From assembly GCA_038064495.1 (NCBI GenBank), contig JBBTSZ010000002.1:280934-344933 (forward strand): DNA of 64,000 bases. Direction: 5' to 3'. The position numbers were made by a program, and so were the translations under genes. The stretch's first letter is position 1; every line of letters starts with the position of its first letter. Shown here piece by piece: positions 6,750 through 45,419 of the stretch. This DNA comes from Patescibacteria group bacterium. GTDB lineage: Bacteria; Patescibacteriota; Minisyncoccia; Phycocordibacterales; Phycocordibacteraceae. Under the pieces are notes generated by a model that was given only the letters and a program-made list of their open reading frames with translations, did not search any database and was not told where the DNA came from.

Positions 6750-7832
6750 ATGCACATGAAAGCTCCTCAGGTGGCCTCAAAAGGACCCCTCTATCTTGGT
6801 GGGGCGCTCCTCGCAACCGTTCTTCTTATCTTCATCGTGTTGCCTGAAGTGTTTGCAGGCAGGTATGACAGTGCTCAAGCACAAGGAACCTCTACCGTGA
6901 AAGCTATCTTCAATAAAGTAGCGGACGCACCCCCAACCCTTGATACCAAAGACTATGACCGCCGCATGCTTAAGCTTGCCAACTACGCAAGTACCACTGC
7001 AAGCACGACACGTGCGTGGCCGGTAAAGGGTCCCTATCCAAAAGTCGGAGCCGTTCTCCCGTTTAAACGCATTGTTGCATACTACGGTAACTTCTATTCA
7101 ACCAAGATGGGGGCGCTCGGAGAATATCCACCTGACATCATGGTTCAGAAGTTGGATCACGAGGTGAAAGTGTGGGCTGCTGCTGACCCGTCTACACCGG
7201 TCGTGCCTGCCATTCACTACATTGTAACGACTGCACAGGGTACCGCTCAGGCAGACGGCACGTATCGTCTTCGGATGCCCGCCGCACAAATTCAAAAAGC
7301 TATTGATCTTGGAAATCAAATACACGGACTCGTCTTCCTTGATATACAGGTCGGCCTCTCTGACCTACCGCGTGAACTTCCGCGTCTTGAGCCGTATCTC
7401 AAACAACCAAACGTGCACCTTGCCGTTGATCCTGAATTCGCGATGCATAATGGGGTGAAGCCGGGACGTGTCATTGGCACGATGGACGCCGTCGATATAA
7501 ATTACGCAACCACCTTCCTTGCTCGTATTGTGAAGGAAAATAATCTTCCACCAAAAATCTTGGTCATTCATCGGTTCACTGAAGATATGGTGACCGGCTA
7601 CAAACGAATTACCCTTCAGCCAGAAGTGCAGATAGTCATGGACATGGATGGCTGGGGATTTGGTGCAAAAAAGATAAATACCTACAAGCGGGTCATTACA
7701 CAGGAGCCCGTACAGTTCACTGGATTTAAATTATTCTATAAAAACGACCTCAAACCGCCCTCTACACGCCTTTTGACTCCACAAGAAGTGCTGAGTCTTA
7801 CACCTGCGCCAAGTTATATTCAGTACCAGTAG
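6750..7832 (+). CDS. membrane-anchored extracytoplasmic protein, possibly TIM-barrel glycoside-hydrolase-like
   Basis: N-terminal TM anchor followed by a ~320-aa soluble domain (LVFLDIQVGLSD...HLAVDPEF). Family not firmly recognised. Confidence 0.45.
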   Translation: MHMKAPQVASKGPLYLGGALLATVLLIFIVLPEVFAGRYDSAQAQGTSTVKAIFNKVADAPPTLDTKDYDRRMLKLANYASTTASTTRAWPVKGPYPKVGAVLPFKRIVAYYGNFYSTKMGALGEYPPDIMVQKLDHEVKVWAAADPSTPVVPAIHYIVTTAQGTAQADGTYRLRMPAAQIQKAIDLGNQIHGLVFLDIQVGLSDLPRELPRLEPYLKQPNVHLAVDPEFAMHNGVKPGRVIGTMDAVDINYATTFLARIVKENNLPPKILVIHRFTEDMVTGYKRITLQPEVQIVMDMDGWGFGAKKINTYKRVITQEPVQFTGFKLFYKNDLKPPSTRLLTPQEVLSLTPAPSYIQYQ

Positions 7833-34169: not shown

Positions 34170-36506
34170 TTGGGAGGTTCTAATCTTCTCGTGGACATTC
34201 CATTCCTAGTGCGGGATTATGAAGGAATGAAAGGGATTATCGCGTGGCTCAAGAGACTTTTGCCTTCGAAGAAAGAGGAGGCTCAACCAGTGAGTGAGTC
34301 GGCTGGCTCCATTATGCCAGAAGCTGAGGAAAAATCGACCTATTCCGCAGATAAGCCAATAGAAACGATCGATCAAGACCGTTTCAACCGATGGGCTTTT
34401 GCAAGGCGAATTGCGGATACCCTCTCCACACGCACTGATCCAAGTAGTGTCGTTGTTGGCGTGTACGGACCTTGGGGAGATGGAAAGACCTCAGTCCTCA
34501 GACTGATGGAGATTGCACTCGCAAATCACCCCAAGATCATTCCTGTTCGCTTTAATCCGTGGTACTTCGGTTCACAGGAGCAGTTACTGCAGGGTTTCTT
34601 TAAGACGGTTGCAGAAGCGGCAGGAAAATCCCTCGTTCATAACGGAGAAAAGTTCGGCAAGTTTCTAGAACAATATGGCTCCTTGCTGTCGCTAGCGTCT
34701 CTCAGTCTCAGCGGTGGGATAGTGTCGGTCGGTTCTGGAGGAGAAGCGGCAGTTGGTCTAGGTAATGCACTTTCTACAGTCGATTTGGATAAACGACGCG
34801 AAAGACTCGAGAAAATCCTCGAAGAAACCGACAAGCGTATCATCGTGATGATTGATGACATCGACCGACTTGATCAGGATGAGATTCATGCAATCTTTAA
34901 GCTCGTAAAACTATCAGCTGGTTTCAACCGAACCAGCTACGTACTTGCTCTAGACGACGAAATGGTTTCCGGAGCTTTGAGTAAGAAATACGGAAGCGGG
35001 AATGCACAAGCCGGTCGAAATTTCTTGGAGAAGATAGTACAAGTCCCTCTACACGTACCGGCGGCTGATGAGATTGAACTCAGGCGAGTTACTCTCGAGG
35101 GCGTCGATGCCGCATTGAAGCTCAGCGAGATAGAGCTGTCTCAGGAACAAGCAGACACATTCACGAGACACTTTGTTGATGGTATTGAAGAGAGAATTCT
35201 CACTCCTCGACAAGCAAAGTTGTACGCAAACGCCATAACATTTGCTTTGCCGATCCTCAAAGGCGAAGTGAATCCAGTCGACCATATGCTCATCGAAGGT
35301 ATTCGGGTGTTTTACCCGAAGCTCTATGTCGTCATACGTGAGAACCCCAGTTTCTTCCTAGAAGCTCCGAGAGACGAACAAAGAGGTGACGTACAACGTC
35401 AGCGAATACATACCTTGATCGACACGGCTCTAAAAGAGGCTGGTATCGAGGATCCTGTGCATGTAAAGGATCGCTTGATCAAACCGATGTTTCCTCGTGC
35501 GATAGGTAACGTTTCGTACGGGTCTGAGTGGGATAAAACATGGGCAAAAGAACAGAAAATCTGCTCGTCCGAATACTTCAAGCGCTATTTCCAATACAGC
35601 GTTCCTGCAGGAGATGTACCCGATCTCGCCACAGAAACCTTCCTCAAAGACATAGGCACGAAAACAGACAGTGAGATAGACGAAACAATCATGAGTTTTA
35701 GCGGGAAAAATGGACTCGCTTCGCTCGTGAAGAAGCTACGCAATAAGGAGACAACGATTGATCCCGATATCGCGCCGAAACTAGCACTAGGTTTTGCTCG
35801 GGCCGGAGCATTTGTGCCGCGAGAGAAAGCAATGTTCTCAGACTGGAGCTTCTCCCAAGCAGCAATATTAGTTTCAGCACTTGTTAAAAGGGTGCCGGCC
35901 GGGAAACGACGAGATGACCTTGCAAGAGAACTTATGCGGAGCGCTACACCTCTCGCCTTCGCCTTTGAGTGCTTACGTTGGCTGGGAAAAGATCCGGAAG
36001 ATAAAGACGATGATCGCGTCCTTTTGGAAGCTATGGAAAAGGAAATAGGAGCGATACTTGCAGAGAGAATTAAAGAAGACGCCGCAAAAGGTCCCTTGTA
36101 CAAAACCTATGGGAGCGATACTCCACGTCTATTCTGGGCATGGCATCACTATGGAAACCAAGCGCAAGTAAAAAAGTACTTGGAGGATAGTTTCGACGCT
36201 CAACCGAACGATGTATATGACTTTCTAGATACGTATGTTGGCGTGAGTTGGGGTATCGAGAACGGTCTGCCAAGCAGATCGGAGTTTCAGAGAGAAAGCT
36301 ACAACAGCATAGAAAAGATGATCTCTCCTGATTTTATTATGGCGAAGCTCCGCATTCAGTTCGGTAGCGAGCTGGATAATCCAGAATATTACCAAACGAA
36401 AGATACTCCAATTCAAAAACAGCTTGCTCACCAGTTCGCTATCTGCCACAGCAAAGCTGTGAGTGAGCGTAAACCTCCCGATCCTCCCAAGAGTCCACTA
36501 GCTTAA
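34170..36506 (+). CDS. KAP-family P-loop NTPase with ~450-aa C-terminal extension
   Basis: Shows DQDRFNRWAFARRIADTL, Walker A GVYGPWGDGKTSVL, and Walker B IIVMIDDIDRLD. The tracker start is TTG at 34170; ATG at 34227 (MKGIIAW) is an alternative. Confidence 0.8.
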   Translation: MGGSNLLVDIPFLVRDYEGMKGIIAWLKRLLPSKKEEAQPVSESAGSIMPEAEEKSTYSADKPIETIDQDRFNRWAFARRIADTLSTRTDPSSVVVGVYGPWGDGKTSVLRLMEIALANHPKIIPVRFNPWYFGSQEQLLQGFFKTVAEAAGKSLVHNGEKFGKFLEQYGSLLSLASLSLSGGIVSVGSGGEAAVGLGNALSTVDLDKRRERLEKILEETDKRIIVMIDDIDRLDQDEIHAIFKLVKLSAGFNRTSYVLALDDEMVSGALSKKYGSGNAQAGRNFLEKIVQVPLHVPAADEIELRRVTLEGVDAALKLSEIELSQEQADTFTRHFVDGIEERILTPRQAKLYANAITFALPILKGEVNPVDHMLIEGIRVFYPKLYVVIRENPSFFLEAPRDEQRGDVQRQRIHTLIDTALKEAGIEDPVHVKDRLIKPMFPRAIGNVSYGSEWDKTWAKEQKICSSEYFKRYFQYSVPAGDVPDLATETFLKDIGTKTDSEIDETIMSFSGKNGLASLVKKLRNKETTIDPDIAPKLALGFARAGAFVPREKAMFSDWSFSQAAILVSALVKRVPAGKRRDDLARELMRSATPLAFAFECLRWLGKDPEDKDDDRVLLEAMEKEIGAILAERIKEDAAKGPLYKTYGSDTPRLFWAWHHYGNQAQVKKYLEDSFDAQPNDVYDFLDTYVGVSWGIENGLPSRSEFQRESYNSIEKMISPDFIMAKLRIQFGSELDNPEYYQTKDTPIQKQLAHQFAICHSKAVSERKPPDPPKSPLA

Positions 36507-38544: not shown

Positions 38545-39786
38545 GTGAAGCCTCGTGCGGACGATACCAGCCAGCCCTATTCTGACCGCGAACTCCAAGG
38601 TCTCAAAGAGCTCAAAACAGCTCGGGCGAGTATTCTAAAGAATCTCCAAGATACCGAGGAAGAATCACAGAATAATCTCCAGAAAACGGCCATTGATGAA
38701 GCTGTACTTGAGAGTATTGGTGACGGGCTGGTCGTTATGGACAAACTCGGCATTATTACCTATGTGAACCCAGCGCTTGAGCGCATGGTCGGCTGGACCC
38801 TCGACGAAATCGTGGGGAATTCCATCGTGGACACACTTATCCTGGAAAAAGAAAAAGGCGAGAAAGTCTCCTACAACGAAGAAATTTTATCTAAGGTACT
38901 TGCCGGCGGTATTGTCGTCGCTGATTTAACCAATCCGTTTTATCACGTGCGCAAAGATAAGAGCACCTTTCCGATAAGTACAACGGTGAGCCCCATCCTC
39001 CTTGCAGGAGAGATTATTGGTGCGGTTATGACGTTCCGCGACATTACGAAGGAGAAAGAAATTGATAAGGCAAAAACGGAGTTTGTCTCGCTTGCTTCGC
39101 ATCAACTGCGTACTCCGCTTTCCACGATTAATTGGTACACCGAAATGCTCCTTGCCGGTGATGTTGGAAAACTGAGTGACAAACAGGATACCTATCTGAG
39201 GGAAATCTACCGGGGAAGTCAGCGAATGGTTTCTCTCGTGAATGCTCTTTTGAGTGTCTCGCGCATGGACCTCGGCACCTTTGTGCTTGAGCCAGAGCCA
39301 ACAGACTTTGTGCGGCTCATACAAACTATTATCCGCGAGCAGCAATTTCATATTGAGCGCAAAAAAATCATCGTCACCACGTCATTCCAAGACTCTCTGC
39401 CTCTCATCCATGCTGATGGAAAACTGCTCAGTATGGTTGTTCAAAACATATTATCCAACGCGGTGAAATATACTCCCGATAACGGCACTATAGATCTCAC
39501 GCTCACGCTCATCCCAAGTGCAAACACGCTTCGCCTAAAGATTAAAGACACCGGCTATGGCATTCCACTCGCCCAGCAGGAGCAGATTTTCACCAAGCTT
39601 TTTCGTGCTGACAACGTGCGCGAAAAAGAAACCGAAGGTACGGGCCTTGGTCTCTACATTGCAAAGACCATTATTGATAACTCTGAAGGGAGACTGTGGT
39701 TTGAATCCGAAGAAAACAAGGGTACGACCTTCTACTTGGAACTGCCGGCATTTTCTGACCAAGTTACTACCAAACACAAGGTATGA
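38545..39786 (+). CDS. cytoplasmic PAS-domain sensor histidine kinase
   Basis: No TM segment. Coiled N-terminus, then a PAS domain (IGDGLVVMDKLGIITYVNPALERMVGWTLDEIVGNSI), H-box LASHQLRTPLSTINWYTEML, N-box VVQNILSNAVKYTP, and G-boxes DTGYGIP and GTGLGLYIA. Confidence 0.85.
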   Translation: MKPRADDTSQPYSDRELQGLKELKTARASILKNLQDTEEESQNNLQKTAIDEAVLESIGDGLVVMDKLGIITYVNPALERMVGWTLDEIVGNSIVDTLILEKEKGEKVSYNEEILSKVLAGGIVVADLTNPFYHVRKDKSTFPISTTVSPILLAGEIIGAVMTFRDITKEKEIDKAKTEFVSLASHQLRTPLSTINWYTEMLLAGDVGKLSDKQDTYLREIYRGSQRMVSLVNALLSVSRMDLGTFVLEPEPTDFVRLIQTIIREQQFHIERKKIIVTTSFQDSLPLIHADGKLLSMVVQNILSNAVKYTPDNGTIDLTLTLIPSANTLRLKIKDTGYGIPLAQQEQIFTKLFRADNVREKETEGTGLGLYIAKTIIDNSEGRLWFESEENKGTTFYLELPAFSDQVTTKHKV

Positions 39787-40253
39787 AAAAGAATCTGAAA
39801 GAAACGAAAACTGTGCTGGTGGTAGAGGACGACCAACCACTCCTTGCGGTCATTAAAATGAAACTTGAGAAAGAGGGTATGCACGTGATTACCTCGCGGA
39901 GCGTTGACCGTGTCTTTAGTATTGAGATTGAGAAGAATGCCGCGAACAAAATTACGATGAGTAGTGTTGAACTTTCACTCAAGCATCTGAATGATTTGGA
40001 TCGTATTGACGCAGTATGGCTTGACCACAACCTGCTCGGAAGTGAAAACGGTCTAGACTTCGTGATTAAGTTTAAAGACAACGGTGGTCATTGGGAAAAG
40101 ATTCCTATTTTTGTTGTTTCAAATACCGCTGACCCAGAACTGGTACAGAAATATGCGGCAGCACAGGTTCCGAACTATTACGTAAAAGCCGAGCACACAC
40201 TTGAAAGTATCGTCAACGATATCAAGAACGTACTTCTTGGAGAAAAGAAATAA
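39783..40253 (+). CDS. receiver-domain-only response regulator (atypical)
   Basis: Overlaps the kinase stop. Shows VLVVEDDQPLL and the phospho-Asp region VWLDHNL. No output domain. Confidence 0.65.
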   Translation: MKKNLKETKTVLVVEDDQPLLAVIKMKLEKEGMHVITSRSVDRVFSIEIEKNAANKITMSSVELSLKHLNDLDRIDAVWLDHNLLGSENGLDFVIKFKDNGGHWEKIPIFVVSNTADPELVQKYAAAQVPNYYVKAEHTLESIVNDIKNVLLGEKK

Positions 40254-40254
40254 T

Positions 40255-40656
40255 ATGAAGGCTCCGAGCATCGTATTGATTGTTGAAGACGAAGCGTCAC
40301 TGCGCCGAGCGCTCTGCGACAAATTTGCGCGTGAAGGCTTTACGGTGTTTGAAGCGAAAGATGGAGAAGTGGGTCTTACGCTCGCCCTCAAGGAAGAACC
40401 GAATGTCATCTTGCTTGATATGATGATGCCGAAGGTAGATGGCATCACCATGCTACATCAGCTGCGACTTGCAAATGAATGGGGCAGACTCGTTCCCGTC
40501 CTGCTCCTTACCAATGTGAGCAGCGACGACAAACGAATGTTGCGAGAGGTACAGGAAGACGGTTCAGCACACTATTTAGTAAAGTCGGACTGGCCTATTA
40601 CCAGACTGGTGGAGCGAGTGAGGGAGGCACTTCGTGAGACTCAAAACAGCATCTAG
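40255..40656 (+). CDS. receiver-domain-only response regulator
   Basis: Starts 2 nt after the previous stop. Shows VLIVEDEASLRRAL and ILLDMMMP (phospho-Asp), plus the conserved T and K regions. Confidence 0.75.
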   Translation: MKAPSIVLIVEDEASLRRALCDKFAREGFTVFEAKDGEVGLTLALKEEPNVILLDMMMPKVDGITMLHQLRLANEWGRLVPVLLLTNVSSDDKRMLREVQEDGSAHYLVKSDWPITRLVERVREALRETQNSI

Positions 40657-40676: not shown

Positions 40677-40697
40677 AAGCGCTACAAGGCGCTTTTT
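40677..40697 (+). terminator. terminator
   Basis: Stem aagcgc/gcgctt with loop tacaa, then a T-run. Confidence 0.55.
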
Positions 40698-40820
40698 ATA
40701 TATAAAACGCGAGAAAACCTAGTAAATACTTGATTTCTTTATCCCCAGCGATAAGGGACACAAGTAACAGGCCAGAAACACAGCCGATATACTGGAGGCA
40801 AGGTAACTATTACATTCTTT

Positions 40821-43800
40821 ATGAACTCATCTTGGCTCGAGCGTATTGGACGAAGCATATTCGTCTCTGTACTTTTACTATCCGTCATACTTAGTGGCTT
40901 TCCTGAAGTGCAGGTGCAAGCTGCAACCACTTCGCTGGCGGCTGCAAGCCAGTCAACCGTACTCACGGTTGGTGCCACATCGGGAGATGTCGGTGTCTTC
41001 CAGGCAGTATTGCAGAAGCTCGGGTATCTCAACTCTACTCCAACTGGCTACTACGGCACTCAGACCAAAGCAGCTGTTGCAATATTCCAAAAATTTAATC
41101 GCCTCCCTGTTACTGGTTCGGTGGATGACCGTACCCGTTACTATCTTGGACAAGCAATTGCGCAGCTAGGCGTTAAAGCACCAGTACTTACAACGACGTC
41201 GTCTGTACCCGCGAAAATCAGAACAACCTTACCGCCTACACCAGTAACAACTCCTGTTGCAACAGCACCAAGTACAACGACACTTAAGGTTCGCTCTACA
41301 GGCGGGAAGGTTACGGAAGTACAGAAGTCTCTGAACACCCTCGGACTTCTTGCTGTTGAACCAACTGGATATTTTGGAACTCTAACAGAAGCTGCTGTTA
41401 AAAAGTTTCAAACCAATAATTTGTTGCCTGTCACTGGACAAGTAGATACAACAACTAATCAAATACTCACAACTACTGCCAGCACCGTTCCTCTTGCCGA
41501 CAGCACAACCAAAACGACTACAACGACTACCGTAAAGACGGCTCCTGCCAAAACGCCTCCGCCAGCACCTGCTGATACAACACTAACGTTTAGTTCCTCC
41601 GATTCTTCTGTTGTCGTTGGTACGTCGTACACACTCAGATGGAGTTCACAACATGCCGAAAGTTGTACTGCTTCCGGAGAGTGGTCGGGTACGTTTTCAA
41701 CAAAAGGAAGTAAGACCTTTACACCGACAACAGAAGGGACAAGAACCTACATACTCACCTGCTACGGAAAGTCAGGCTCGGTAGTAGGGAGTCAAACCGT
41801 TGTTGTAACTGCAAACACTGACCCCGTTGTAGCGCCCCCACCAGCTCCAGCACCGTCACTCACGTTCACGGCAACTCCGACGACAGTTACATCAGGTGGT
41901 AGTACTACACTTACGTGGACTACGAAAGATGCAACCAGCTGCACAGGAACAGGAGATGGGATTACCGGTACTCAGCCAACGAGTAAAACCGTGACCGTGT
42001 CTAACATCACCTCTGACCGAACTTTCTCTCTCTCCTGTACCGGTGCGGGTGGCACGGTCGCAAAGTCACTCACCGTAACCGTTACTGAACCAACACCTGT
42101 GCCGACCGTTGCACCAACGCTTATCTTTAGCGCAAGCGCAACTTCAGTTTTCTCGGGCGGAAATGTCACCCTCACCTGGTCCACCACAAACGCAACAAGC
42201 TGTACCGGTACAGGCCAAGGCATTGTCGGTACTCAGCCTACGAGTAAGTCAGTATCAGTATCAAACATCACCTCTAACCAAACCTACAGTCTCACCTGTA
42301 CGGGAGCAGGAGGCAGTATTACCAAATCCATAACTGTTGTGGTCACGGGACCAGCACCACTTACCGGTGTCGTGTCTGAAGGAGACTCCATCTCTGTTTT
42401 TTGGAGTGGGAACCACACGGGTATCTACGCTGCCGCAAATCCAACTGTTCCCTTCAAGGGACTTGCAGTGGGTGGTTCAGGCATTGGTACTCTCACAGCA
42501 CGCCAGCAGGCAGTACTTGATGCGAAGCCAAAAGTATTCACTGTATTTATTGGTGCCAATGACTTAACGAGTTACTCTTCTGCAACAGCCTTTACTAACG
42601 CTCTCTTCTCATATGTTGCAACGATTAAGGCAACCGGTGCAAAAGTTGCGGTAGCCACCATACTGCCGCAACAAATCGCAAATGCGTCGGCAAATAATGC
42701 CTTGCATAATACTCGTCGAGTAGAGGCAAACAACATTATCCGAGCAGCTGTTGGCGGAAAAATAGATGGGGTCATTGACTTCGCAGCTGACCCAACAATG
42801 GGACCTGATTCAGCGGCAGCTAATACAACCTTGTATTACGATGGTCTTCATCCAACTGATGGAAATAGTGCCGGTACAGGAGGTCAAAATAAACTTGCGC
42901 TTGTGTATGGACCAGTCGTAAACGCACTTCTTAACGGGACTCCAGTACCAACACCTTCCCCGTACATCACACCAACGCTGACCTTCACTGCAAGCGCATC
43001 GTCAGTTACTTCAGGAGGAAGTGTTGACCTTACCTGGTCCACCACAAACGCAACAAGCTGTACCGGTACAGGCCAAGGTATTGCTGGCATGCAGTCAACG
43101 AGCAAGACAACGACAGTATCAAACATCACCTCTAACCAAACCTTCAGTCTCACCTGTACGGGTGCTGGTGGAAGCGTTACAAAATCTGTGAGTGTAACAG
43201 TTCTTGCTCCACAGCCCTCTCCGTCAACTATCCCTGCATCTATTCCAAGCAATTTTGACATCAACTCAGAACTCGTTCCGTCATGGGGAACGGGAGCTAT
43301 ACCCGCAAGTGCAGCCCCTGATGTTGTTGGTGCCTTCCGCTTTATCTGTAACGCAAGCCATGAATCATTCGATGACCCTATTGTCTATCCGGGACAACCA
43401 GGCAAATCACACTTACATGAGTTCTTTGGCAACACACTAACGAATGCAAACTCTACCTATCAGAGTCTTCGTACAACGGGAAATAGCACCTGTAACAGTC
43501 CACTTAACCGTTCAGGATATTGGATTCCAGCGATGATTAATGGGGCCGGGCAAGTAGTACGTCCAGACTACGTCTCTATCTACTACAAGCGCCGTCCAGA
43601 TACCGATCCTCTCTGCACCAAGATTGGGAAATCGTGTGTTGACTTGCCTCGTGGACTTAGATTCGTGTTCGGAGCAAACCTAGTCAGTGCAACACCAACC
43701 ACAGGAGGAGGATATTTTAACTGCACGGGTCCTACCGCAACTTCCGGGCATTATAAAGACATCGCTACCGCAGCAAAGAATTGTCCTGCGGGAAATCAAA

Positions 43801-44459
43801 TTGGGGCAATCATATCTGCTCCAGAATGTTGGGATGGTGTAAATCTAGACAGTGCAGACCACCGTAGTCATGTAGCCTACTCTCAGTACATTGGTCAGTC
43901 GTATGCCCAGTGTCCGTCAACTCACCCGTACGTCATTCCGACCTTCACACTTGGCGCATGGTATACCGTGGACAGTACGCTTGATCGCTCAGGAACGTGG
44001 AATCCTGCAACGCCAACCTGGCACCTCTCTTCTGACGGTATGCCGAACGCCACGAAGAATCCTGGTTCAACGCTCCACTCTGATTGGTTTGGAGCATGGG
44101 ACGATACGGTAAAGGCCATGTGGGAACAAAACTGCGTGAACAAACTTCTGAACTGTTCTGGAGGTGATCTTGGAAACGGTAAGCAGCTGAAAATGTTCAA
44201 GGGCTTCAGTTGGACAGCCAATCCACGTACGGTGCCGATACCCGCTGGAGGTCCGATGGCATATATTCCTAATCACGATTTCAAGATTGGAACGAAGGGG
44301 CCAAGTGTAACCGCTCTTCAGAACCTCCTCAAGAATCTTGGTTTCTTCAAAGAGCAGGCAACGGGATACTTTGGAACACTCACGCAAGCTGCACTCAAGT
44401 CCTACCAGAGTAGTTTGGCAGGTGTCGGAGCAGCAGGTACGGAGCACGACCACCAGTAA
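40821..44459 (+). CDS. 1212-aa secreted multidomain cell-wall protein: signal peptide, 2x PG_binding_1, ~5 Ig-like repeats, SGNH/GDSL hydrolase, DUF1996-like domain, C-terminal PG_binding_1
   Basis: Signal peptide followed by PG-binding repeats (GDVGVFQAVLQKLGYL...YYGTQTKAAVAIFQ), twice at the N-terminus and once at the C-terminus. Ig-like repeats of ~80 aa (LTWSTTNATSCTGTGQGI.G.Q.TSK...SNITSNQT.SLTCTGAGGS). GDSL blocks SEGDSIS, GANDL and DGLHPTD. A DUF1996-like region has SHLHEFFGN and RSGYWIPAMI. Confidence 0.8.
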   Translation: MNSSWLERIGRSIFVSVLLLSVILSGFPEVQVQAATTSLAAASQSTVLTVGATSGDVGVFQAVLQKLGYLNSTPTGYYGTQTKAAVAIFQKFNRLPVTGSVDDRTRYYLGQAIAQLGVKAPVLTTTSSVPAKIRTTLPPTPVTTPVATAPSTTTLKVRSTGGKVTEVQKSLNTLGLLAVEPTGYFGTLTEAAVKKFQTNNLLPVTGQVDTTTNQILTTTASTVPLADSTTKTTTTTTVKTAPAKTPPPAPADTTLTFSSSDSSVVVGTSYTLRWSSQHAESCTASGEWSGTFSTKGSKTFTPTTEGTRTYILTCYGKSGSVVGSQTVVVTANTDPVVAPPPAPAPSLTFTATPTTVTSGGSTTLTWTTKDATSCTGTGDGITGTQPTSKTVTVSNITSDRTFSLSCTGAGGTVAKSLTVTVTEPTPVPTVAPTLIFSASATSVFSGGNVTLTWSTTNATSCTGTGQGIVGTQPTSKSVSVSNITSNQTYSLTCTGAGGSITKSITVVVTGPAPLTGVVSEGDSISVFWSGNHTGIYAAANPTVPFKGLAVGGSGIGTLTARQQAVLDAKPKVFTVFIGANDLTSYSSATAFTNALFSYVATIKATGAKVAVATILPQQIANASANNALHNTRRVEANNIIRAAVGGKIDGVIDFAADPTMGPDSAAANTTLYYDGLHPTDGNSAGTGGQNKLALVYGPVVNALLNGTPVPTPSPYITPTLTFTASASSVTSGGSVDLTWSTTNATSCTGTGQGIAGMQSTSKTTTVSNITSNQTFSLTCTGAGGSVTKSVSVTVLAPQPSPSTIPASIPSNFDINSELVPSWGTGAIPASAAPDVVGAFRFICNASHESFDDPIVYPGQPGKSHLHEFFGNTLTNANSTYQSLRTTGNSTCNSPLNRSGYWIPAMINGAGQVVRPDYVSIYYKRRPDTDPLCTKIGKSCVDLPRGLRFVFGANLVSATPTTGGGYFNCTGPTATSGHYKDIATAAKNCPAGNQIGAIISAPECWDGVNLDSADHRSHVAYSQYIGQSYAQCPSTHPYVIPTFTLGAWYTVDSTLDRSGTWNPATPTWHLSSDGMPNATKNPGSTLHSDWFGAWDDTVKAMWEQNCVNKLLNCSGGDLGNGKQLKMFKGFSWTANPRTVPIPAGGPMAYIPNHDFKIGTKGPSVTALQNLLKNLGFFKEQATGYFGTLTQAALKSYQSSLAGVGAAGTEHDHQ
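42174..42220 (+). repeat. intragenic near-identical 47-nt repeat, copy 1 (copy 2 at 43032-43078)
   Basis: acctggtccaccacaaacgcaacaagctgtaccggtacaggccaagg occurs identically in two Ig-like repeats about 860 nt apart. Confidence 0.7.
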
Positions 44460-44535: not shown

Positions 44536-45015
44536 ATGAAAACTAACCTATGGATTCCGTACTTGGTATGTGTAGTCGCATCACTTCTTGCGGGAGGTAT
44601 CGGCTCCTACTTCACGTTTGAAGCGATTAGTACTTGGTACATGGGACTCACGCTTCCTTCATGGACTCCACCCAATTGGGTATTCGGTCCCGTATGGACC
44701 ACTCTGTACGTGTTGATGGGTGTTTCAGCGGGCTTAGTGTGGAAAAGCACACGTGCGGATAAAAAATGGGCACTCTACCTTTTCTTCTTTCATCTCCTTG
44801 TGAACGCAGCGTGGTCTATTGTGTTCTTTGGTCTTCGCGACCCCGTTTCTGCACTCCTTATTATCAAAGCACTATGGCTTTTGATAGTTGCACTCATGAT
44901 TCTTTTCTGGAAATATTCAAAGCTTGCTACGTATCTTCTGATTCCGTACTTAGTCTGGGTCTCCTATGCCACCTCACTCAATCTTGGTGTTATTCTGTTA
45001 AATCCCCTTATATGA
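44536..45015 (+). CDS. tspO: TspO/MBR tryptophan-rich sensory protein
   Basis: Five TM helices with WYMGLTLPSWTPPNWVFGPVWTTLY. Confidence 0.85.
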   Translation: MKTNLWIPYLVCVVASLLAGGIGSYFTFEAISTWYMGLTLPSWTPPNWVFGPVWTTLYVLMGVSAGLVWKSTRADKKWALYLFFFHLLVNAAWSIVFFGLRDPVSALLIIKALWLLIVALMILFWKYSKLATYLLIPYLVWVSYATSLNLGVILLNPLI

Positions 45016-45419
45016 AAGATATTCTTAAATTGTTTAGTCTCGCACTTCCGATTATGGTAGCTCTGGACCTCTCTTGGGTAAGTGTCATTGCTGCTAGCTT
45101 CTACCATGCAAACTTAGGACCCCTGCTTGCTCCAGTCCCGCACTACGGCGCTATCGTTTTGTTCTATATTTTCTACACCCTCGTGCTTATCTACTTTGCA
45201 CTACGTCCGGCACTTATTGAGCGGTCGCTTCCTCGCGCCATGATAAATGCAGCCGTACTTGGGTTCGGAGCCTATATGACCATTGACCTCACAAACTACG
45301 CACTCATCGCTGGCTGGCCTCTCACCCTTGCCGTAGTTGATATAGCATGGGGCATTATCCTTACAAGTCTCACCGCAGGTCTCACCTATCTCGTCGCTAC
45401 GAAAATCTTTACGCTCTAG
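45012..45419 (+). CDS. DUF2177-like membrane protein
   Basis: The ATG overlaps the tspO stop in ATGA fashion. Four TM helices. Confidence 0.55.
   Translation: MKDILKLFSLALPIMVALDLSWVSVIAASFYHANLGPLLAPVPHYGAIVLFYIFYTLVLIYFALRPALIERSLPRAMINAAVLGFGAYMTIDLTNYALIAGWPLTLAVVDIAWGIILTSLTAGLTYLVATKIFTL

Follow-up and report, generated by a model that had tools for sequence, protein, structure and literature searches.

Organization of the 1212-aa protein encoded at 40821-44459

We analyzed a 64,000-nt stretch of the genome of a Patescibacteria group bacterium (GenBank contig JBBTSZ010000002.1, positions 280,934 to 344,933; hereafter the window), which carries at 40821..44459 on the + strand a complete open reading frame (ORF) with an ATG start encoding a protein of 1212 aa. 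The identical protein is already public, on a 565,823-bp contig, as NCBI MEK7602223.1 ([quoted passage not shown]; MAG, metagenome-assembled genome). A second assembly, from the 0.1 μm fraction of Hainich groundwater well H41, was identical in DNA at 7639 of the 7639 nt compared, and the same start of the coding sequence had been called there independently. We assigned domains with Pfam and set their boundaries by self-search. From the N-terminus, the order is a signal peptide, two PG_binding_1 domains, a Thr-rich linker, three immunoglobulin (Ig)-like repeats, an SGNH/GDSL hydrolase domain, a fourth Ig-like repeat, a DUF1996 domain and a final PG_binding_1 domain. An earlier note, made from the sequence alone, had given the same ORF coordinates and named the same domain families, of which PG_binding_1, GDSL and DUF1996 were confirmed by Pfam, and each of the motifs it listed was found: SEGDSIS (S523), GANDL (N580), DGLHPTD (D674 and H677), SHLHEFFGN (H864 and H866) and RSGYWIPAMI. 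Where it counted about four Ig-like repeats ahead of the esterase, we found three there and four in total. The gene encodes a modular secreted enzyme made of catalogued domains and is deposited and annotated; it does not constitute a new type of system.

The only hydrophobic segment of the protein lies at aa 6-32, the sole place where a 19-aa Kyte-Doolittle window exceeds 1.6. This segment and the sequence VQVQA followed by A fit a cleavable signal peptide, and a Sec signal peptide is predicted at aa 1-34 (40821..40922, +) with inferred cleavage after VQA. The protein contains 18 cysteines, with 2 in each Ig-like repeat (32 residues apart), 10 in DUF1996 and none elsewhere; this confinement of paired cysteines to the Ig-like and DUF1996 domains is the expectation for an extracytoplasmic protein. 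The linkers consist of 56-83% Thr, Ser, Pro and Ala, a fraction that is 79% in the Thr/Pro-rich linker at aa 218-250 (41472..41570, +).

PG_binding_1 (PF01471) was matched in three stretches with 139.3 bits against a cut-off of 23 (E 4.3e-41). Domain 1 spans aa 47-110 (40959..41150, +), domain 2 spans aa 154-217 (41280..41471, +) and domain 3, at the C-terminus, spans aa 1154-1210 (44280..44450, +). The presence of these modules at both termini is best explained if they are putative non-covalent wall anchors. PG_binding_1 domains commonly anchor enzymes that act on substrates other than peptidoglycan. NCBIfam models for SleB and peptidoglycan hydrolases also matched the protein, all on the PG-binding segments and far below their cut-offs; the SleB model scored 95 bits against a cut-off of 236.5, over its PG-binding part only, and the SleB catalytic domain had no NCBIfam match in the 1212-aa protein. 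The protein thus shares with anchored wall enzymes of the SleB cortex-lytic type the same PG_binding_1 modules, here well above the Pfam cut-off, but differs from them in the unmatched SleB catalytic domain and in having anchors at both termini, which is unusual.

The SGNH and DUF1996 domains and their relatives

The SGNH/GDSL hydrolase domain (aa 508-712; 42342..42956, +) matches Lipase_GDSL_2 over aa 521-680 (E 2.5e-14, 54.6 bits against a cut-off of 32.9). Its blocks I, II, III and V are complete, and the predicted catalytic residues S523, G552, N580, D674 and H677 are invariant or present in at least 90% of 55 homologs. An AlphaFold2 (AF2) model of the domain reached a pLDDT of 96.7 and a pTM of 0.92, and a Foldseek search of the PDB with this model returned 109 matches at E <= 1e-3. 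Nearly all of the 50 best were esterases of the SGNH/GDSL type or scaffolds derived from such enzymes by design, led at TM-scores of 0.65-0.72 by Bacteroides GDSL-like proteins, a sialate O-acetylesterase, acetyl-xylan esterases and a polyvinyl-alcohol esterase; none of these 50 is described as a peptidoglycan O-acetyl enzyme. The Pfam match, the model and the SGNH carbohydrate esterase folds that it resembles uphold the GDSL/SGNH assignment of the earlier note. The characterized carbohydrate O-acetylesterases in question (sialate esterases 7pzh and 6njc; acetyl-xylan esterases Axe2 and PbeAcXE, 7toh) match the fold with a probability of 1.0 and share the Ser-Gly-Asn-Asp/His residues, but they are only 14-25% identical to the window domain, which lies between Ig-like repeats and is fused to DUF1996. 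The nearest named relatives by sequence are stand-alone Sphingomonas proteins (50-62% identity), which start with lipoprotein signals and Pro/Ala-rich linkers.

DUF1996 and its conserved flanks occupy aa 800-1147 (43218..44261, +), with a Pfam core at aa 852-1093 and self-search boundaries at aa 831-1140. The match to PF09362 covers the full profile (1-237 of 237; E 1.2e-37, 130.7 bits against a cut-off of 27) and turns what had been called a DUF1996-like region into a member of the family. This family was said to be mostly known from fungi, yet we found 4439 clusters at 50% identity (E <= 1e-3), and the nearest relatives of the window domain are bacterial. Across 48 close homologs, D852-P853, H864, H866, R897-S898, Y900-W901, H1014, H1017, H1086, D1088 and W1093 are invariant, as are many of the cysteines, and H1035 is present in at least 90%; the conserved motifs recur in 69 more distant representatives. 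This pattern of invariant His and Asp residues suggests a metal-dependent active site.

The head signature of the family, DPIxxP, is present as DPIVYP (aa 852-857), and the tail HSDWFGAW (aa 1086-1093; HxDxxGxW) departs by one position from the fungal HxDxxxGW. Fungal DUF1996 proteins, such as vacuolar proteins of Beauveria bassiana (PMC4738358) and the WSC-DUF1996 protein Wsc1I (cited in PMC9148135), belong to the same Pfam family over its full profile. They are known only from stress phenotypes of knockouts (PMC4738358) and from their localization. In bacteria, the copies are either lipoproteins that are secreted or fusions anchored in the wall. In fungi, DUF1996 is also fused to, or co-occurs with, CBM1, CBM6 and WSC domains (PMC7679414).

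Among 69 long DUF1996 representatives, 16 also contain Lipase_GDSL_2, and others contain Calx-beta (30), CBM60 (1) or CBM96 (1). The same GDSL subfamily and DUF1996 occur together in 22 proteins of the retrieved set, in both domain orders. As judged from these proteins, the GDSL-DUF1996 combination is a recurrent fusion module and not a one-off, and it is best explained as an evolutionarily mobile module of two putative enzymes.

For each of the two catalytic domains, the closest relatives are stand-alone lipoproteins of Sphingomonadales. In four Sphingomonadales genomes, a stand-alone DUF1996 protein (66-72% identity) is encoded inside an exopolysaccharide (EPS) biosynthesis locus, and these loci contain genes for GT2 and GT4 transferases, Wzy_C, Wzx, Wzz, Poly_export, Bac_transf, exosortase EpsH/EpsI and the acyltransferase AT3. 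Of 65 named genome loci with full 3-kb flanks, 40 carry one or more genes of these kinds within 3 kb. Two DUF1996 paralogs are common in Sphingomonadales EPS loci, as in L005, L007 and L010; L005 and L007 each have a PilZ gene beside the first copy and a DUF1800/DUF1501 gene pair ahead of the second. Sphingomonas sp. M1-B02 carries an SGNH relative ~16 kb from a DUF1996 relative within one EPS locus. As the Sphingomonas relatives of both domains carry lipoprotein signals and long linkers, they are expected to be extracytoplasmic. The description of DUF1996 in the earlier note as putatively glycan-active is strengthened by this genomic context.

Ig-like repeats and the surroundings of the gene

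The four Ig-like repeats each carry one cysteine pair. R0, which is diverged, spans aa 251-331 (41571..41813, +; Cys282/Cys314), R1 spans aa 343-423 (41847..42089, +; Cys374/Cys406), R2 spans aa 430-510 (42108..42350, +; Cys461/Cys493), and R3, between the two catalytic domains, spans aa 716-796 (42966..43208, +; Cys747/Cys779). No Pfam model matches this ~80-aa Cys-pair repeat, and R2 has a sequence match in the PDB to 9ncf_S, an "Immunoglobulin-like domain protein" (E 2.6e-4). The repeat drives most of the 1396 matches of the protein at E <= 1e-5, which are proteins of 1000-2000 aa from many phyla, often labelled "trimeric autotransporter adhesin" by JGI. From these matches, it looks like a widespread uncatalogued β-sandwich module.

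R2 and R3, which flank the esterase domain, share two tracts of near-identical DNA. Tract A consists of 47 nt at 42174..42220 in R2 and 43032..43078 in R3 (both +), an identity that the earlier note had reported and that proved exact and not extendable. Tract B lies at 42256..42304 in R2 and 43114..43162 in R3 (both +); here, 30 nt are identical (42256-42285 and 43114-43143), one mismatch follows and the next 18 nt (42287-42304 in R2) are identical again. The 47-nt and 30-nt runs are the only exact direct repeats of at least 30 nt in the 64-kb window. When mismatches were shuffled over the 249-nt alignment, an identical run of 47 nt had P = 0.00035. Of the residues that R2 and R3 have in common, 22 of 24 are encoded by the same codon within the tracts, compared with 9 of 22 outside them; the latter value resembles those for pairs involving R1 and comes close to the 0.34 that the codon usage of the gene predicts for the tracts. 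This codon mosaic was significant by Fisher's test (P = 3.7e-4) and by a runs test (P = 0.0026).

The mosaic fits the pattern expected of short-tract gene conversion between the repeats flanking the esterase domain, and the gene conversion proposed in the earlier note is in this way backed statistically in both tracts. We consider it improbable that the 47-nt identity instead reflects an assembly artefact or selection at the protein or nucleotide level. Tract A does encode the best-conserved portion of the repeat (TWSTTNATSCTGTGQG), and the longest same-codon run, tested on synonymous codons alone, reached only P = 0.033. However, R1 has the same residues in the tracts and encodes them with other codons (4-7 of 12 in common, compared with 11 of 12 between R2 and R3), and the Fisher and runs tests also count against this reading. 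The 47-mer is shorter than one sequencing read and the second assembly is identical over its 7639 nt, though it was possibly built from overlapping reads.

The same note had suggested that repeat number may vary, which we did not find within the population: the 90%-identity cluster has 1 member and the second assembly is identical. Syntenic orthologs in another Patescibacteria lineage do differ, with four Ig-like repeats in P0002 and one in L076. In this pair, the gene follows polA (83% identity) and a 230-aa ORF (61%), and the same position, after polA and this function-unknown ORF, is kept between L004 and L076.

Directly upstream of the gene, 38545-40656 encodes a PAS-HisKA-HATPase histidine kinase followed by two receiver-only response regulators that have no output domain. 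A terminator-like hairpin at 40677..40694 (+), a match to a consensus pattern only, lies 3' of the nearer response-regulator gene and suggests that the large gene may be its own transcription unit. A sigma-70-like promoter match (GTAACA, 18 nt, TATACT) at 40764..40793 (+) is likewise a pattern match only, of a kind more numerous in shuffled sequence than observed; GGAGG is found ~20 nt 5' of the ATG. Immediately downstream, 44536-45419 holds genes for a protein of the TspO/MBR family and for a DUF2177 membrane protein; TspO, which binds tetrapyrroles or sterols, is perhaps unexpected in a genome of ~0.6 Mb. The neighboring genes also include those for an SPFH protein and YceG/MltG, and none among them is an obvious functional partner of the large gene. 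Elsewhere in the window, 34170-36506 encodes a 778-aa KAP-family P-loop NTPase (Pfam E 4.6e-46) and 146-1012 encodes a FecR-domain protein, with CHASE2 and Guanylate_cyc matches that probably come from the adjacent 630-aa ORF at 1016-2908. A FecR and CHASE2-EAL pair also lies beside the EPS locus of Sphingomonas M1-B02 (L011), probably by coincidence.

Predicted function, alternatives and distribution

With moderate confidence, we propose that the protein is a wall-tethered bifunctional enzyme that would de-O-acetylate, and then cleave or modify, an acetylated extracellular polysaccharide belonging either to the cell itself or to a partner. After export by the Sec pathway, the PG_binding_1 modules at both ends would hold the enzyme non-covalently in the wall, and the Thr/Pro-rich linkers and disulfide-bonded Ig-like spacers would display its two catalytic domains. 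The SGNH domain would strip O-acetyl groups from the polysaccharide, and DUF1996, probably metal-dependent in view of its invariant His and Asp residues, would next cleave or otherwise modify the exposed glycan. The nearest relatives of the two modules are separate lipoproteins of Sphingomonadales EPS loci; in Patescibacteria and in MAGs labelled Bdellovibrionales, the pair is joined to peptidoglycan anchors.

Secreted EPS-processing enzymes with two activities are known: PelA and PgaB each combine a deacetylase and a glycoside hydrolase in one protein. The proposed enzyme would resemble them in placing two catalytic modules on one extracytoplasmic polypeptide and in deacetylating and cutting the same polymer, which is here a prediction; residence in EPS loci is shared between PelA/PgaB and the relatives of the present domains. 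PelA and PgaB differ in that they have CE4 metal-dependent de-N-acetylases and known glycoside hydrolase folds, compared with an SGNH domain (O-acetyl) and a DUF1996 domain that has no recognizable CAZy fold, and in that they have no PG_binding_1 anchors. Phage tailspikes with SGNH esterase domains, such as gp63.1 of phage G7C, deacetylate host surface glycans. They offer a second possible analogy, that of an external SGNH esterase acting on acetylated surface polysaccharide, with which the matches of the window SGNH domain to a PHROG "esterase/lipase" family and, weakly, to a "tail protein" family are in line; the closest stand-alone DUF1996 protein is likewise encoded on a phage-like contig. 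Unlike tailspikes, however, the protein has no tailspike or trimerization domains, and DUF1996 matches no PHROG family and no structure in BFVD.

Several observations weigh against this proposal. The AF2 model of DUF1996 (aa 800-1147; pLDDT 86.4, pTM 0.86) found no match with Foldseek in the PDB (best E 0.099, TM 0.13) or in BFVD (best E 0.019, TM 0.09), and a search of the literature turned up no biochemical activity for any DUF1996 protein. The EPS-locus context is seen in Alphaproteobacteria only, and the copies in Patescibacteria, Bdellovibrionales, Myxococcales and other non-alphaproteobacterial genomes have no polysaccharide genes within 3 kb. Many of the Sphingomonas loci are mutually orthologous, and the 40 of 65 loci with a polysaccharide gene nearby are not independent observations. 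The three PG_binding_1 domains could mean that peptidoglycan is the substrate. Finally, the closest named SGNH relatives adjoin an Acyl_transf_3 (AT3) gene in all three Sphingomonas genomes examined, and in characterized systems an AT3 protein beside an SGNH protein carries out glycan O-acetyl transfer and not hydrolysis (PMC7448272, PMC9558356).

Searches of the PDB with DUF1996 by phmmer and by profile also returned nothing, and neither sequence nor fold likeness to a glycoside hydrolase, polysaccharide lyase or lytic polysaccharide monooxygenase (LPMO) was seen in the PDB or BFVD. Weak GH16 and viral-spike entries for the model were set aside as noise (TM ~0.1). An LPMO-like reading of the His-rich motifs was rejected, since the domain is internal and the N-terminal histidine of the histidine brace is impossible. 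Because the model matches no glycoside hydrolase, lyase or solved fold, a glycan-cleaving role for DUF1996 is proposed from context alone.

The strongest alternative, which we nonetheless regard as unlikely, is that peptidoglycan is the substrate, with the SGNH domain acting as an Ape-like O-acetyl-peptidoglycan esterase and DUF1996 as a new peptidoglycan-cleaving domain on the cell's own wall or that of a neighbor. In addition to the three PG_binding_1 domains and the NCBIfam matches to SleB and peptidoglycan hydrolases, a YceG/MltG gene 2.6 kb downstream and the occurrence of whole-architecture relatives in Bdellovibrionales-labelled MAGs speak for it, as members of the Bdellovibrionales are known predators that attack the walls of their prey. 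However, PG_binding_1 is often a mere anchor, and the NCBIfam matches, besides lying wholly on the PG-binding segments, are far under their cut-offs. The nearest relatives of both catalytic domains are found in EPS loci and not in wall-synthesis loci, and the 50 best structural matches of the SGNH domain comprise sialate, xylan and other glycan esterases with no described peptidoglycan O-acetyl enzyme among them.

The AT3 genes next to the Sphingomonas SGNH relatives make acetyl transfer, in place of hydrolysis, a serious possibility for the SGNH domain. In its full form, this alternative holds that the domain works outside the cytoplasm as the acetyl-transferase that pairs with an AT3 protein of the membrane, on the model of OafA/OafB or of the MBOAT-SGNH pair PatA/PatB, and that the protein decorates and trims the cell's own surface glycan; we judge such a biosynthetic role improbable. 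AT3-SGNH (OafA/OafB) and MBOAT-SGNH (PatA/PatB) pairs are established acetyl-transfer systems (PMC7448272, PMC9558356, PMC12148441), and an SGNH relative beside AT3 is their hallmark arrangement. In contrast, neither an HMM built from the Sphingomonas AT3 neighbors nor jackhmmer found an AT3 homolog in the window, a search confined to 64 kb out of a contig that spans at least 566 kb, and AT3 is absent among the top Pfam families of the 28 large ORFs of the window. With no AT3 or MBOAT partner found there, the SGNH domain also differs from those systems in that its fusion partners are a second putative enzyme and wall anchors, not a membrane acyltransferase, and flanking glycosyltransferase or export genes are lacking here and in L076, L017 and L059. 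Least probable is that the protein serves chiefly in adhesion or as a structural component of the wall and that its "catalytic" domains only bind, as its Ig-like repeats, Thr-rich linkers, anchors at both ends and the JGI adhesin label on many repeat-sharing proteins might suggest, because the SGNH catalytic residues are all intact and invariant or nearly so and DUF1996, 65-79% identical across phyla with invariant His, Asp and Arg residues, bears the mark of strong active-site selection.

The 78 best loci in GTDB species genomes are overwhelmingly from Sphingomonadales. The exceptions are four Bdellovibrionales-labelled MAGs (65-79% identity, GC 0.44-0.47), a Myxococcales MAG, an Anaerolineae MAG and L076, another Patescibacteria MAG recovered from the same well (73% identity). 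By Pfam, L076 contains PG_binding_1, GDSL and DUF1996; L017, which has a Bdellovibrionales label, contains PG_binding_1, an fn3-like domain, GDSL and DUF1996; and L019, with the same label, contains PG_binding_1 and DUF1996. The four "uncultured Bdellovibrionales" MAGs (L017, L019, L014 and L059), so assigned by their labels as deposited, come from four studies; they are the nearest relatives resolved to a genome, and two carry PG_binding_1 fusions.

Relatives of the DUF1996 domain from several other phyla, stand-alone proteins among them, share 65-79% identity with it. The closest of the stand-alone proteins, the lipoprotein P0122 (77% identity), has a Thr-rich linker of ~190 aa and is encoded at 9001-10503 of L009, a 37-kb Logan contig from SRR23073228. 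This contig is phage-like, with terminase, ERF, RusA, HNH and ParB-methylase genes, and the P0122 gene has a GC content of 0.46 against 0.37 for the contig. P0122 may be a surface-glycan enzyme carried by a phage, and may also mark a vehicle of transfer. A recent import into the window was rejected on base composition, as the DUF1996 segment (GC 0.50; GC at third codon positions, GC3, 0.44) is like the rest of the gene and of the window; Sphingomonas genes have a GC3 of 0.65-0.89. Given this lack of a compositional signature, any transfer is old or fully ameliorated.

In a neighbor-joining tree with 100 bootstraps, the window sequence grouped with P0003 and three Bdellovibrionales-labelled sequences at 55-59% and near Sphingomonadales; deeper nodes had at most 22%, and distant outgroups failed to root the tree cleanly. 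The organism encoding P0003 and the window organism have two neighboring genes alike, at 43-54% identity, which is uninformative on their kinship. Transfer between phyla is a reasonable inference from the 65-79% identity, with no direction supported by the tree.

The earlier note also raised the idea of action on host or partner-cell surfaces, which is not borne out by the provenance of the sequence: the contig of the second assembly comes from a 0.1 μm filter fraction, and most ultra-small cells of the Hainich aquifer were judged free-living (PMC8672522). Patescibacteria MAGs there co-occur one-to-one mostly with Nanoarchaeota, Bacteroidota, MBNT15 and Bdellovibrionota (PMC8672522). A further paper, PMC12455944, consulted for hints of horizontal gene transfer and of hosts, names neither the relevant taxa nor the relevant functions. 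More speculatively, DUF1996 could represent a new class of polysaccharide-cleaving or -modifying domain with an unprecedented fold, native to Sphingomonadales EPS loci, which ultra-small Patescibacteria, predatory Bdellovibrionota and a phage-like element would have acquired horizontally together with the esterase; fused there to peptidoglycan anchors or tethered as a lipoprotein, it would strip and penetrate the acetylated EPS or capsules that surround alphaproteobacterial hosts or prey. We think this doubtful.

DUF1996 comprises more than 4,000 clusters at 50% identity in fungi and bacteria, and its model has no solved structural relative. Three convergent clues, namely the recurrent fusion to a single SGNH subfamily in both orders, the residence of stand-alone forms in Sphingomonadales EPS loci and a tethered extracytoplasmic placement, point to action on acetylated extracellular polysaccharides; a polysaccharide activity, if true, would make DUF1996 a new family of carbohydrate-active enzymes. 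As the module is common to Sphingomonadales, Patescibacteria, Bdellovibrionales-labelled MAGs and a phage-like contig at 65-79% identity, it may serve as a marker of gene flow between phyla, and possibly of interaction partners in groundwater. If the module was indeed captured for breaching EPS, the gene would point to a partner of this groundwater Patescibacterium.

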